A DNA stretch of 64,000 nt, taken from NCBI GenBank assembly GCA_965219875.1, contig CBDCOW010000003.1, positions 1,165,892 to 1,229,891 on the forward strand. Reading direction: 5' to 3'. Both the position numbers and the translations under genes were made by a program. The notes under the pieces are model-generated. The model saw only the letters and a list, made by a program, of their open reading frames with translations. It did no database searches and was not told the DNA's origin. Shown in pieces: positions 18,940-33,985 of the stretch (its first letter is position 1; every line of letters starts with the position of its first letter). Source of the stretch: Dehalococcoidia bacterium (GTDB lineage: Bacteria > Chloroflexota > Dehalococcoidia > SHYB01).

Positions 18940-20268
18940 ATGAGGGGGCGCGATGTACAGAGGGCCAGAGCGGCCCAGGTGGGCCTGCTGATGAGGTCCT
19001 ACCGCGAGTCTTTTTCCCTGGGAGGCGGTCGGAGGGGGCTGACGCAGGAAGCGCTGCTGGAGCGGATGGGGGCGGTGGACGGTGACTACGCGGAGCGGTA
19101 CAGCCACGCCACAGTCTCGCGATGGGAATCCGGCGGCACCCGCCCTACGCTTCAGCGGCTGAGGGTATTTGGCAAAGCCCTCGCCCTGTCGCGGACAGAG
19201 GTAGCCGGTCTCATATTGCTGGCAGGGCTGGCGACTGACTTCCGGGCGGCGTTGGGTCAGGTCACCGGGAGCGATAGTGACGGGGCCATTGGCCACGCTG
19301 CAACGCCGGATCCGAGATCTGATCCCTACGTTGCGGCTGGCACCGAAGCTACGAAGATCGAAAGCACGACGTCAATCCTCAGGACTGCAATCCTCTTCTG
19401 GTTCTTGAGGGTCCTGCCGCTCGGGATGTGCATAGTGGGCGGGTATGTGCTGTCGTTCTACGGCTGGAACAACTCATGGATGCCCACGGCGTACGTCGCT
19501 TTCGCAATTGGAATCGTACTGGTGCAGGGGTTCTTGCTGCCGGAACGTAGCGCTCCCTTCAGAGAATTCTTCTGGGTTTCGCTGTTCTTCCTGTTGACCA
19601 CGCCCCTGCTGCAGTTCGCCTCGACACGCGTGGACCACTACAACTTTCACACGATTGGGAATCTTGCCGGCACCCAGATGCCCTACATGCTGGCGCTTCT
19701 CCTGAACCTGGTGATCGCAGCTGCAGCTGGGCTGATGTTCCAGCTGCTATGGAAACGGCAGTACTCAGGCGGCAGCGATGGGAGCAGCGCCCTCCGACGG
19801 GCGGCCGGCGTGGCATTGCCGCCGGTGATCTCCGTGTACGCTGTTGTCGTTGTCATCACCAACATCTCGGTATCGATACAATTGGCGGTCCTAATGCCGC
19901 TGTTGGGTGCTGTCTTCGCCACATTGCTGGTATTGCGCGACCCTGCTTTCAACCCCAGGGAGCGCGACCGGATGTTCCTGCTCTCGACAGCGTCGGTGTT
20001 GACGATGATCTCGGCGACATTGTGGATAGTTGCCATGATGGCGATCTACCTGTCGCCGGACCTGCCGAGAGTCTTGCCGGACCACAACCTGTTGCGTTCC
20101 TGGGAAATAGATTTCGCCGAGTTGGGCCTCAGCCGGGAAGAGGCGCTGGACGGGTTGAACTTGGGATACATGTGGCACGCGATCTGGGTCTTCGCCTTCA
20201 TGTTCTTTGTTGTCGGCGGCAGACTGATTGTGTCCATCTACCGGATTGACGGCGGCCAACGACGATGA
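18940..20268 (+). CDS. XRE-type HTH regulator fused to a multi-pass membrane domain
   Basis: LTQEALLERM...TVSRWESGGTRP HTH at the N-terminus, followed by about 7-8 hydrophobic segments. Confidence 0.8.
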   Translation: MRGRDVQRARAAQVGLLMRSYRESFSLGGGRRGLTQEALLERMGAVDGDYAERYSHATVSRWESGGTRPTLQRLRVFGKALALSRTEVAGLILLAGLATDFRAALGQVTGSDSDGAIGHAATPDPRSDPYVAAGTEATKIESTTSILRTAILFWFLRVLPLGMCIVGGYVLSFYGWNNSWMPTAYVAFAIGIVLVQGFLLPERSAPFREFFWVSLFFLLTTPLLQFASTRVDHYNFHTIGNLAGTQMPYMLALLLNLVIAAAAGLMFQLLWKRQYSGGSDGSSALRRAAGVALPPVISVYAVVVVITNISVSIQLAVLMPLLGAVFATLLVLRDPAFNPRERDRMFLLSTASVLTMISATLWIVAMMAIYLSPDLPRVLPDHNLLRSWEIDFAELGLSREEALDGLNLGYMWHAIWVFAFMFFVVGGRLIVSIYRIDGGQRR

Positions 20269-20428
20269 GGGCCCAGGGGCAGAGGCAGAGAAGCCCACCA
20301 ACGTAGCTGCGCGAGGCTCTACGGCTTCGTAGACTGCATTCTGGCCGTCCGAGTCCAGAGTGCCTTCACGCCCTAGCTCTACGAGCAGTTTCCCTTGGAA
20401 GAGCTCCTCACTGAGCCTCACTGAGCGC

Positions 20429-20457
20429 TTGACGCCATATGGCGCACTGGCTACAGT
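20429..20457 (+). promoter_or_regulatory. Sigma70 promoter, copy 1
   Basis: TTGACG-N17-TACAGT. The hexamers are identical in copy 2 while the spacer diverges. Confidence 0.75.
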
Positions 20458-20460
20458 ATA

Positions 20461-20526
20461 GCTACCACCCCTATCGCTTCGCCGGTAGGGTCGAGACCGC
20501 CCTCCGAGGCGGTCTCTGTCTTTGTT
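20461..20526 (+). ncRNA. Candidate small RNA or attenuator leader (two hairpins + U-rich tail), copy 1
   Basis: CCCTATCG/CGGTAGGG stem, then a perfect GAGACCGCC/GGCGGTCTC stem and TGTCTTTGTT. Confidence 0.55.
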
Positions 20527-20737
20527 AGGGAGTAACGACTCAACGTCATAACAGACGGCGTCAGTCTCTACTACGGCTCCCTAAAGGATGCGTATAGCCA
20601 AGACCACGGAGCACCTGAGCTGACCGCCTCAGCCTTCCGTTTGCATTTCCAGGGCCAGCACCCCACGGCGGGAATCTACAGACGCGAGTTCGAATCCCCA
20701 CAGGCCGCCTCTGGCGACGGCGGAGTCCAAGCAGCGA

Positions 20738-20914
20738 ATGCTGAGGTTGGAGATTGCGATCATCGAGCAACACGAGTTGACCTTGCCCCCGGCGTCTTAC
20801 CACTGGGACCAGTTCGACAGGAGGGATCATGCTCGGCGCCGAAGGCTGTCTCTGGGCGATGCCCGCGTGGAGCGCAACCGGGCGCTGATGCGTCGGTCGC
20901 TGTGGCGGAACTAG
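20738..20914 (+). pseudogene. Small ORF / 3' remnant of an unknown gene
   Basis: MLRLEIAIIEQHELTLPPASYHWDQFDRR...; the upstream in-frame peptide STDASSNPHRP is homologous to STDADWNSHRP in repeat copy 2. Confidence 0.3.
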
Positions 20915-20959
20915 GTCCATCGGGGGTTTGGCCGGGTAGTAGTGACCCGTCCACATTCA

Positions 20960-21823
20960 TTAGACAAGTCCCAATAGCTCGACAGCGATGTCGTCAACGC
21001 TCTTCAGCGACGTATTCAAAGCGACTTTATCTGCAAGCGTCGGACTGTATCGTGCAACCTCGTCGAGAGAAACCTTGTGCCATATGGGAAGAATCCTGCT
21101 ACGCCCCTGAATTTCGAGAGTAACAAGCCCATCTAGTTCTCTTTGTGGCCACTCCTTCTTGAAAAAAGCCTCTGAGAGAACCACCACTCCGAATTGTGAG
21201 TTCGCCAAGCCACGGTCGATCTCTCTGCGCAGGCTATCGCCGACGCTGAGCGTGAATTCGTCGTACCAGACACTGGCTCCTTTGGCTTCGAGAGTCTCCG
21301 CCAGATGACGAACTAAAGACTCCTTATCTTCGCTGGCATGACAGATAAAGAAGTCATAGTCTTCATGGGTGGGTGGCTCGATCATGGGCAACCGAGATAC
21401 CTGAGCACGCTGCGATACTTCCCTCGTAACCCGACGCTCATGTTCCTCACGTTCTCGAATCAGGCGTTTCTGTTCCTGAGCGCTCTTCCTGCTTTGGCGG
21501 TCCGTCTCAGTAGCAAGCTTCTTCCGCTCCCGTTCACTCTCGCGCGCTTGGCGCTCTTCATAGGAGTGCAATCTTCTTGACTTGTCGGCTATCTGCCTCC
21601 CCAGATTCGCCAACCTCTTCTCCACTGAGGCGAGGTCTCTATAAGCGTTCTCAACCTCTCTGGTCTTTGACTTGAGCGTTGAGGAGCTTTTCGTTCTTGA
21701 AGCAGCATCGTTGGCTCGGTTGATCCTCCCGACTAGGTCAGCTTGTCTCTGCCGCTCTCGCGCCTCGCGCTCCCTAAGTGAGGCGATATCTCTGTTGAGG
21801 TTGTCAATCTGGCTGGTAGTCAT
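20960..21823 (-). CDS. Coiled-coil + TIR domain protein (TcpB/TirS/AbTir-like, putative NADase)
   Basis: YDFFICHASEDK...VWYDEF...GDSLRREIDRGL...WPQRELDGL with the catalytic Glu, and an N-terminal heptad-rich helix. ATG 21823 after AGGTGG. Confidence 0.93.
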   Translation of the reverse strand: MTTSQIDNLNRDIASLREREARERQRQADLVGRINRANDAASRTKSSSTLKSKTREVENAYRDLASVEKRLANLGRQIADKSRRLHSYEERQARESERERKKLATETDRQSRKSAQEQKRLIREREEHERRVTREVSQRAQVSRLPMIEPPTHEDYDFFICHASEDKESLVRHLAETLEAKGASVWYDEFTLSVGDSLRREIDRGLANSQFGVVVLSEAFFKKEWPQRELDGLVTLEIQGRSRILPIWHKVSLDEVARYSPTLADKVALNTSLKSVDDIAVELLGLV

Positions 21824-32724: not shown

Positions 32725-32849
32725 GCTGGGACACAGCTATCCGGCACCTTCAGAACACTTGCACAAGGTTCTGGGGACATCCCGCATCAAAGGGAAGCCA
32801 GCCGACGTAGCACGGGCAACGATCTGGCCCCGCAAAAACTCGAATGAGT

Positions 32850-33107
32850 TCATGGAGAATCTATCTCCTGGTGCTCATCCACCTCCGCCTCGCACAGCTT
32901 GTGCTTGATCTCCCGGATTGTGAGCCGCTGTTTGCTCTGGAGATCGTCAATTTCACGAAGCCGTTCTATTGCCTCCGTGCCATCGAAGAGACAGTATCCT
33001 CCCGGAGTCTGGCCCACGGGCTGGAGAATGCCTTCCTTTACGTAGAAACGGACCTTGGATGGAAGGATGCCTGCCCGTTTGGCCAGCTGGCCAGTTTTGA
33101 TGAGCAT
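32850..33107 (-). CDS. Stand-alone MerR-type HTH regulator
   Basis: KTGQLAKRAGI...VRFYVKEGIL.P...GGYCLF. SD GGAG. Confidence 0.85.
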   Translation of the reverse strand: MLIKTGQLAKRAGILPSKVRFYVKEGILQPVGQTPGGYCLFDGTEAIERLREIDDLQSKQRLTIREIKHKLCEAEVDEHQEIDSP

Positions 33108-33139
33108 CTTGCCACTCCCGGCTAGGGATAGATCAATCC

Positions 33140-33170
33140 AGAATAGTGCAACGTGTCACTTTTCACTTAA
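33140..33170 (-). promoter_or_regulatory. Possible MerR-type promoter/operator
   Basis: TTAAGT-N19-TATTCT, with the imperfect dyad AGTGCAACGTGTCACT (33145-33160) in the spacer. Confidence 0.35.
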
Positions 33171-33431
33171 TGCATCGTCGAGTATAACGGGAGATATGGG
33201 TCTTCGTCTACATGTTCTTTGTCGTCGGTGGGAGACTGATTGTGTCCATCTACCAGATTGATGGCGACCGACGACGATGATGGTCTAGGGGTGAAGGACG
33301 AGAAGTTCCACCAACGCAGCGACCCGGAGCTTTGTGGCTTCGTAGACTGCTTCCTGGCGGTCCGAGCCCAGAATGCCCTCACACCCTAGCTCTACGAGCA
33401 GTTTCCCGTGGAGGTGCTCTTCATTGAGCGC

Positions 33432-33460
33432 TTGACGCCATATGACCCACAGGCTACAGT
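33432..33460 (+). promoter_or_regulatory. Sigma70 promoter, copy 2
   Basis: TTGACG-N17-TACAGT. Confidence 0.75.
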
Positions 33461-33463
33461 TTA

Positions 33464-33529
33464 GCTACCACCCCTATCGATTCGACGGTAGGGTCGAGAC
33501 CGCCCTCCGAGGCGGTCTCTGTCTTTGTT
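33464..33529 (+). ncRNA. Candidate small RNA or attenuator leader, copy 2
   Basis: Same two stems as 20461-20526. Only the loop of hairpin 1 differs (ATTCGA vs CTTCGC). Confidence 0.55.
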
Positions 33530-33985
33530 GGGGGGTAACGATTGATCACCAACGTCAAGAGAGATAGCTTCAATCCCTACTGCCGTACCCTCAAAGACAC
33601 GGTGCCAACACTGGGGAGCACCACTCGGGCTGACTAGCCCAGTATCCCGCTTCCGTCTCCATGGCGAGCGCTCCTCAGGGGACTCCACGGATGCGGACTG
33701 GAACTCCCATAGGCCCACTCGTTCATCCGAGCTGGGCTCCGCCAGCTCAGATCCGTACGGGGTAACAGGGATCAGGGCCTAAGTTGGGCGCCACGCCTGG
33801 TCCCAACGGCCCCACCCTCTCCGTCGGCTGTTGTGAGGCACACTACTGCCTAACAACCTGACCTGGCTTGAATGGACCCAGACCGACCGCCCACGAGTAC
33901 TTGAGTTTTCTGTGTCGATTGAGTCCAGAGAATGAAGGTTCTTGATTTTGTCCAGTTTGGTGGGCCTTTTTTCACGATAGACAGA

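Follow-up and report, generated by a model that had tools for sequence, protein, structure and literature searches.

A predicted structured RNA upstream of HEC-09-like NYN ribonuclease genes of Chloroflexota and its orphan copies around a Druantia/TIR cassette

In RCd22/AbiF_Cd of the C. difficile prophage phi027, the small RNA RCd22 is produced in excess, expression of the gene depends on read-through, and the RNA combines termination in cis with protein binding in trans (bioRxiv 10.1101/2025.04.15.648962). The non-canonical system AvcID has shown that type III toxin-antitoxin logic needs neither a ToxN-like toxin nor a repeat array (PMC10511110). HEC-09 is described as a single protein-coding candidate defence gene, and the available text of that report does not mention an RNA partner (bioRxiv 10.1101/2024.01.29.577857). 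Here, we describe an RNA of approximately 65 nt that lies in two copies in a 64,000-nucleotide stretch of DNA from a Dehalococcoidia bacterium (contig CBDCOW010000003.1, positions 1,165,892-1,229,891; the whole stretch is called the window below), and that, judged from sequence comparison, is the constant upstream partner of one family of HEC-09-like NYN ribonucleases. The two copies in the window are orphans, each followed by the dead stub of an NYN gene.

The RNA was found within two diverged but collinear direct repeats on the plus strand, 20181-20710 and 33193-33715, with a spacing of approximately 13.0 kb. Repeat search yielded three blocks (D5, D4, and D3) that add up to 20181-20538 versus 33193-33541, and a pairwise MAFFT alignment pushed the ends out to approximately 20710 and 33715; beyond these limits the identity was only 31-36%, i.e. 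background. The preliminary description of this DNA, which had reported such a repeat pair 13 kb apart, is thus borne out on this point. Over the whole 530-bp repeat the identity was approximately 77-82%, with 62-75% in the neutral parts. By segment, it was 88.6% in the opening 88 nt (the 3' end of an open reading frame (ORF) for an HTH/membrane protein), 75% in the following 160 nt (intergenic), 89.7% in the promoter, with both hexamers unchanged (TTGACG-17-TACAGT), 97% in the 66-nt RNA segment, and 67% in the terminal approximately 180 nt, which contain the Shine-Dalgarno (SD) sequence and the NYN stub. The contrast between the RNA (97%) and its non-coding flanks (67-75%) gave a Fisher p of 1e-5, and the longest block without a mismatch between the copies (44 bp) lies within the RNA. 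The only two differences in the RNA segment, at 20477 and 20482, stand on either side of the UUCG loop, so that the earlier claim of identical hexamers followed by a segment with two loop differences also stood. The promoter and RNA named in that description were there, but it had missed that the first 88 nt are coding or formerly coding and that the last approximately 175 nt are a pseudogene stub. Each repeat is the relic of a three-part module consisting of the end of an HTH/membrane gene whose travelling companion is a large serine recombinase, a small RNA gene, and the 5' end of a dead NYN ribonuclease gene.

In each copy, the consensus scan detected a single promoter-like site on the plus strand and a single strong hairpin resembling a terminator (GAGACCGCC...GGCGGTCTC followed by TGTCTTTGTT), as against 0.1-0.4 promoter- or terminator-like sites in shuffled sequence. 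The sigma-70-like promoter of copy 1 is at 20429-20457, at the same distance from hairpin 1 as in the relatives, and that of copy 2, with the same hexamers, at 33432-33460. The RNA of copy 1 (20462-20530) scored 89.7 bits with the covariance model R1 described below and that of copy 2 (33465-33533) 89.3 bits, and both were also recovered by folding and by the terminator scan. In copy 1, hairpin 1 (20469-20490) carries UUCG in its loop and is followed by hairpin 2, the presumed terminator (20493-20516), and the tail UGUCUUUGUU (20517-20526); in copy 2, the two hairpins are at 33472-33493 and 33496-33519. Both copies were predicted to form two stems with UGUCUUUGUU after them (-30 and -31 kcal/mol; z scores of -2.3 and -2.5), as expected from the two stems and U-rich end reported previously. 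The core of each repeat is therefore presented here as a predicted RNA of approximately 65 nt with its own sigma-70-like promoter, built of a short C-rich 5' tail, an 8-9-bp hairpin with a UUCG cap, a linker of 2 nt, and a GC hairpin of 9-10 bp that runs into a U-rich tail. The second hairpin with its tail looks like an intrinsic terminator and, being placed between promoter and gene, has the features of a terminator or attenuator, termination itself being predicted only. The folds showed no competing antiterminator structure, inspection by eye revealed no convincing SD-sequestering or antiterminator pairing with the 5' tail of the RNA, and the tRNA/tmRNA scan gave no match.

Where the copy of the RNA is intact together with its gene, an ORF starts 8-17 nt past the U tract, reads 'M-I-T/S-N-V-Y-I/V-D-G-F-N-L-Y...', and encodes a 209-amino acid protein with a Pfam NYN domain (PF01936); its start codon is TTG or GTG in the Chloroflexota loci. 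The protein of one relative (G005) matched the PADLOC HEC-09 profile PDLC04163 with E = 6.4e-34, residues 5-209 aligning to positions 6-202 of the 203 in the profile. The catalytic Asp residues are invariant among the NYN relatives. The AlphaFold2 model of the protein (pLDDT 80) had its best fold matches in the bacterial NYN-like structure 2QIP and the MARF1 NYN domains 5YAA and 6FDL, a similarity found by fold search only, as a PDB sequence search with the NYN profile gave no match.

Relatives of the NYN gene were scanned at one genome per species, which gave more than 521 loci, nearly all from Dehalococcoidia and other Chloroflexota. In all 80 loci that were fetched, a promoter-like site and two hairpins stand directly ahead of the NYN start codon, in the order promoter, RNA, putative terminator, NYN gene; in the window, the corresponding toxin position is occupied by the dead stub only. 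There is no space for a second promoter between the RNA and the NYN gene, so that NYN would be expressed by read-through only. Combination of the two scans, for RNA and for NYN, over one set of 401 class genomes showed that 24 of the 25 closest NYN genes had the RNA 8-17 nt upstream and a single one lacked it. The bit scores of RNA and NYN were correlated (Spearman 0.80), the more distant NYN genes being paired with lower-scoring RNAs. The suggestion that the RNA is typical of the element family around the window was accordingly imprecise: what it accompanies constantly is the HEC-09-like NYN gene, and the window copies are orphans. In the literature searched, no paper tied the NYN domain to type III toxin-antitoxin systems, no relevant paper tied it to Dehalococcoidia, and none dealt with this RNA family.

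Rfam 15 had no match at gathering score across the 64-kb window. At E <= 10, the 221-nt stretch 20380-20600 around copy 1 gave nothing credible, only chance matches of 13-16 bits; the best of the sub-threshold matches, RNAI and istR, reached 15-16 bits against cut-offs of 45-47. Among 74 distinct RNAs, nine pairs had changes on both sides, compared with 3.1 in shuffles (0 of 500 shuffles), and 92% of the alignment was paired in the true register against 34-51% in slid registers. When the leaders of more distant NYN genes were added, 17 of 19 pairs covaried and 94.8% of the cells were paired (0/500 shuffles; slid registers 33-51%). At one stem position U-G was the commonest pair (59/74 sequences), and changes from C-G to U-G were frequent; such G-U wobbles are strand-specific and assign the structure to the RNA of the plus strand. 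Since the stems covary, the core is conserved family-wide, and its conservation exceeds that of the flanks, the results support a selected, structured RNA that is not annotated, which is what the preliminary description had proposed as a small RNA or attenuator.

Scans with R1 were made in 401 genomes of the class and in 401 genomes sampled across the phylum. The RNA was present in 91 of the former (23%; 43 of 222 genera) and, at E <= 1e-6, in 57 of the latter, among them genomes of other classes in which the sequence is almost the same. Copies are present in nine of 61 related genomes, the genome of the window being counted, and that genome has three: a third copy of the 66-nt element is located on another contig. 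The promoter-like sequence ahead of the RNA differs from locus to locus while the RNA is constant. A further, weak match in the window (61368-61430, plus strand; 22.8 bits, E = 1.4e-4) lies inside a minus-strand ORF and is probably a chance GC-rich double hairpin.

The 117 strong copies of the RNA comprised 59 next to an NYN gene, 17 in tandem upstream of another copy, and 41 orphans, and in 17 genomes the RNA was present without a close NYN gene. The two partners are clearly unequal in this respect: copies of the RNA that lack the nuclease are common, but a close nuclease gene that lacks the RNA is a rare exception. Orphans have kept a promoter-like site that ends approximately 9 nt ahead of hairpin 1 and scores 8-11 of 12, like that of the NYN-linked copies, whereas only 0.4% of random 60-mers score 9 or more. 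What follows them is mixed, i.e. decayed or truncated NYN starts (G131, G208, G361, and the third copy in the genome of the window), DUF3800-like genes (G171 and G104), or unrelated housekeeping genes. In the two DUF3800-like cases (L111 in G171:C79 and L114 in G104:C1), two tandem RNAs precede a gene that starts 'MLVFIDESGHP...' and is not NYN, and the RNA may also serve other gene families there. Tandem copies are 84-240 nt apart in some genomes, while the window copies and most relatives have single units. Each of the tandem copies checked (G006, G148, G385, G171, G104) has a promoter-like site of its own; at L046, only approximately 25 nt separate the second RNA from the first, which leaves no space for a full promoter.

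The orphans of the window are old. The stub of copy 1 (20531-20710, plus strand; tblastn and alignment) has lost its start codon through a 6-bp gap, with 'NVITDGVSLYYGSLKD' still readable, and that of copy 2 (33542-33715, plus strand) has a TTG start and 'LITNVKRDSFNPYCRTLKDT' but runs into an in-frame stop after approximately 31 codons. The alignment showed frame-breaking indels that are common to copy 1, copy 2, and the copy in G009, a genome of another genus; as these indels are derived, the NYN gene was dead already in the common ancestor of the three. Since then, identity has dropped in the stubs (58-63%) and in the intergenic DNA (75%), while the RNAs are still 89-97% identical and the promoter hexamers unchanged. 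Close NYN genes are absent from the genome of the window; it carries just a distant paralogue (107 bits) and a member of another NYN family, which is preceded by a promoter and a hairpin leader of its own. An RNA retained long after the death of its nuclease, in a genome without the cognate enzyme, would have value of its own, and the contrast between stub and RNA, the strongest evidence at hand, suggests that the RNA is kept under selection without a neighbouring NYN gene. Perhaps it works on its own, as an antidote.

This contrast bears on the alternative that the RNA is purely a cis leader that throttles or conditions the transcription of NYN, for instance by read-through that depends on a protein or a signal or by cutting of its own leader by NYN, the orphans being non-functional relics. 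Such a leader agrees with the fixed distance of 8-17 nt to the start codon, with an SD sequence that directly adjoins the U tract on its 3' side, and with the terminator-like hairpin recovered by the scan. RNases often autoregulate through their own leaders, as is established for RNase E and RNase III. The genome of the window also offers a parallel at L003 (1349-1480, contig C1 of G000), where the third RNA copy is followed by an NYN gene reduced to 7 codons and, 3' of it, by a promoter (TTGACA-17-TATACT), a long hairpin and its U tract, and a gene for another kind of NYN-domain protein (212 amino acids); this second leader is unrelated in sequence, and the same promoter-hairpin-terminator-NYN layout thus occurs twice. 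However, non-functional relics are not expected to keep RNAs and promoters at 89-97% identity beside ancestrally dead stubs, and more than a third of the strong copies (41/117) are orphans with retained promoters. Tandem arrays and the lack of an apparent alternative antiterminator pairing also argue against a pure leader, as does the conservation of the stems in sequence as well as in pairing, which a plain terminator does not need. We regard a purely cis-acting leader as possible but unlikely, at roughly one chance in four.

The persistence of the RNA at 41 orphan sites and in 17 genomes without a nearby NYN gene, its extreme sequence conservation across classes of the phylum, and the copies ahead of other genes, such as the DUF3800-like genes of G171 and G104, fit another explanation, in which the RNA is an independent trans-acting small RNA (a protein sponge or base-pairing regulator) and NYN is the enzyme of its processing or turnover. 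The near-obligate tie to one NYN family (80/80 and 24/25 loci) and the co-divergence of RNA and NYN speak against it, as do the patchy, island-like rather than core distribution (23% of the class genomes) and the single-stranded parts, which are very short for base-pairing; we consider this explanation improbable. Least probable of all is that the core acts as DNA or as a selfish repeat, whether a recombinase target or att site, a mobile hairpin resembling a miniature inverted-repeat transposable element, or a reused strong terminator or insulator: serine recombinase genes adjoin it here and the remnant of one in G009, it occurs in multiple copies and in tandem arrays, and copy 1 is the first presumed terminator past the HTH/membrane gene and would shield the convergent defence operon. 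However, the G-U wobbles (U-G in 59/74 at one position) and the compensatory changes are of a strand-specific kind that marks RNA, the promoters are wholly different between loci where the RNA is constant, contrary to the pattern of copy-and-paste repeats, the majority of NYN loci lack a neighbouring recombinase, and a terminator needs neither hairpin 1 nor a promoter.

The reading we favour, although it falls somewhat short of an even chance, is that the RNA is the partner of NYN, an attenuator in cis and an inhibitor in trans, with the toxicity of NYN and its binding by the RNA both putative. It follows the logic shown for RCd22/AbiF and for type III toxin-antitoxin systems. The RNA would be made in excess from its own promoter and end at its own hairpin. 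In cis, the terminator would hold NYN expression, which would come from read-through, far below the level of the RNA; in trans, the abundant RNA would bind and restrain the nuclease. The orphans of the window would then persist on mobile DNA as RNA genes that stand alone and resemble an antidote. A parallel to orphan RNA copies that last on mobile DNA is the phage-borne pseudo-ToxI.

Several points weigh against the partner reading. The main caveat is that the orphans may look more conserved than they are, owing to gene conversion or to a recent exchange with intact modules. Transcript ends and termination efficiency are predictions, and if the RNA is an antidote, its target is not evident in a genome that lacks the cognate nuclease. 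This variant of the RNA was not found in GenBank phages, PLSDB plasmids, or viral contigs; the only exact-pattern match, on a viral contig, was rejected as a chance half-match without the hairpin. In classical type III systems, the toxin is a ToxN/AbiQ-type endoribonuclease, whereas the partner here has an NYN/PIN-like fold (matches to 2QIP and MARF1); the antitoxin consists of toxin-processed direct repeats of 36-45 nt under one promoter, whereas the RNA here is a single unit; and type III antitoxins form pseudoknots with ToxN-type toxins, of which none is evident in this RNA. In addition, the HEC-09 representative that was assayed did not protect E. coli against phage, according to the available text of the report (bioRxiv 10.1101/2024.01.29.577857).

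A more far-reaching version, in which the RNA is the antidote of a new NYN-based class of toxin-antitoxin or abortive-infection systems and its orphan copies on mobile elements are decoys, appears to us a long shot. If it were true, decoy RNAs would disarm NYN modules for suicide or addiction in cells newly entered by the element, or would shield a host that has lost its own module, and would be a chromosomal counterpart of the phage pseudo-ToxI. In either version, the conserved RNA ahead of the family offers a testable answer to the question of how stand-alone NYN/PIN-like nucleases, which are abundant in defence islands, stay harmless. The leader may also explain failed cloning or assays of an NYN gene that was handled regardless of it. 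The window is a clean case of long-term orphan retention, and mobile orphans are a natural experiment for an antidote or anti-defence function. Being present in about a fifth of the sampled Dehalococcoidia genomes and in other Chloroflexota classes, the RNA family merits an Rfam model.

The genes between the repeats all run leftward on the minus strand (20561-33107; Pfam and PADLOC). From right to left, they encode a MerR regulator (32850-33107), a DruM C5-methylase (31603-32724; PADLOC DruM2, 262 bits), an HhH-GPD glycosylase or nicking-enzyme-like protein (30882-31706), DruF (28822-30885; 560 bits), a DruL-like protein (27837-28991; DruL4, 195 bits), the DruE helicase (22089-27836; 1780 bits), a coiled-coil TIR protein of the PDC-S66/ThsB-like kind (20960-21967), and a 131-amino acid ORF with no assigned family (20561-20956). 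DruM, DruF, DruL/G, and the DruE helicase in one operon identify a Druantia system of type II/IV. The HhH-GPD protein is of the EndoIII type with an Fe-S motif, its gene overlaps the end of the DruM gene, and PADLOC labels it a 'type II nicking endonuclease' (E = 2e-32). The TIR, Druantia, and MerR genes said to be enclosed by the repeats are all there, with the correction that MerR is the minus-strand ORF 32850-33107. A minus-strand promoter-like site (33210-33181) lies at the left edge of copy 2. The small RNA of copy 1 is convergent with the end of the leftward defence genes; it had been described as pointing antisense into the TIR gene, and the orientation is right, but the terminator-like hairpin lies between. 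A minus-strand coding reading of the right part of the repeats (ORFs 20561-20956 and 33461-33718) was ruled out by frame-breaking indels between the copies. The Druantia/TIR operon is merely what lies between the two copies of the module.

The final 88 nt of an HTH_31 (XRE-type) gene encoding 442 amino acids with a hydrophobic C-terminus (18940-20268, plus strand) open copy 1, in which the HTH/membrane gene end, intergenic DNA, promoter, small RNA, and dead NYN stub follow one another. Copy 2 has the same layout with the upstream gene cut to its last approximately 88 nt: the relic (33193-33280, plus strand), 88.6% identical to 20181-20268, has the same 26 codons and has kept the stop codon, and there is no ORF upstream. 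The HTH/membrane gene is divergent from a gene for a large serine recombinase of 611 amino acids (17075-18910, minus strand; Pfam). In G009, the equivalent of 17071-17131 is joined straight to that of 20351-20642 (blastn), so that the recombinase and HTH/membrane pair (17132-20350) is missing beside the G009 RNA. The left edge of copy 2 shares 11 nt (GAGTATAACGG) with G009; the window contains this string a single time, and chance may account for the match.

Neutral sequence in the two repeats has diverged by 25-40%, whereas the adjoining host DNA is 97% identical to the nearest relative, which indicates two diverged elements and not a duplication in situ; copies 1 and 2 are two already diverged versions of the module, joined in a recombinase-associated variable island. 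Island-flanking att repeats resemble the present pair in being direct repeats around a defence cassette inside a recombinase-associated island. However, att repeats are short and identical, whereas the repeats of the window are gene relics plus an RNA gene in two diverged module copies of 530 bp (62-97% identical by segment), and an attL/attR integration scar was ruled out. The route for gain, loss, or amplification of the cassette that the preliminary description saw in the repeat pair is hypothetical. Deletion of the cassette now and then by homologous recombination within the 44-bp identical block is possible in principle; a recombined single-copy junction was found in none of the relatives.

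G006, the nearest complete relative, is 97% identical over 1-16225 of the window, after which synteny is gone to the end of the window; it does not resume there, and neither an empty site nor a right island boundary was found within the window. Exactly at the end of synteny (16225) lies an inverted copy, 270 nt long, of the 5' end of the serine recombinase gene (inverted repeats I2/I3, 16222-16502 and 18390-18659; 84-86% identical). At least eight copies of this segment are spread around the G006 genome, and at the same site G006 has a different recombinase, 72% identical and in the opposite orientation. The site looks like a recombinase-targeted hotspot or a nested insertion into recombinase genes. 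On the right, tandem repeats of 102 nt (two copies, 33960-34163) and 72 nt (at least three copies, 34583-34845) lie in minus-strand ORFs beside copy 2; more than a dozen copies of the 72-nt-repeat region are found at 3143341-3150007 of G006, probably a repeat-protein gene family. Further on are an IS110-family transposase (35945-37156, minus strand), a DUF2958/ThiF/Prok-JAB cluster (38002-39975, minus strand; GC 0.64-0.68), and a C-terminal fragment of a second serine recombinase (41075-41872, plus strand; inverted repeat I1, 82% identical to 17137-17761). The IS110 and DUF2958/ThiF/JAB genes between copy 2 and this fragment are typical cargo of integrative or conjugative elements. The segment 42104-52995 is 83-85% identical to and collinear with G009, of another genus, but is not found in the same-genus G006, suggesting differential loss or transfer of a further block of approximately 11 kb outside the island treated here. 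The region is a composite, recombinase-associated variable island.

Compared with known systems, the NYN loci share with AbiF/RCd22 a housekeeping-type promoter, a short structured RNA with conserved hairpins, a Rho-independent terminator (a predicted one in the NYN loci), a ribosome-binding site, and a toxin-like gene without its own promoter. The AbiF protein belongs to Abi_2/AbiD/F (Cas13-related), whereas the partner here is NYN, and RCd22 has approximately 100-130 nt with two abiF motifs, whereas the present RNA has approximately 65 nt with one specific hairpin. The abiF motif RF03085 had no match in the window at gathering score and none at E <= 10 in 20380-20600. With the type III systems ToxIN, CptIN, and TenpIN, the loci have in common the order of RNA gene, terminator (predicted here), and RNase gene, and RNA copies multiplied in tandem; as classical membership fails on the toxin family and the repeat array, the module can be said to work like a type III system but not to be a member. 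With HEC-09, the likeness is in the protein, since the NYN proteins that follow the RNA match the profile over its full length and have the MARF1-like NYN fold, although the window itself holds only dead stubs. The pairing of RNA and NYN, which is absent from Rfam 15 and from the literature searched, is a variant of the theme of RNA-controlled toxins.

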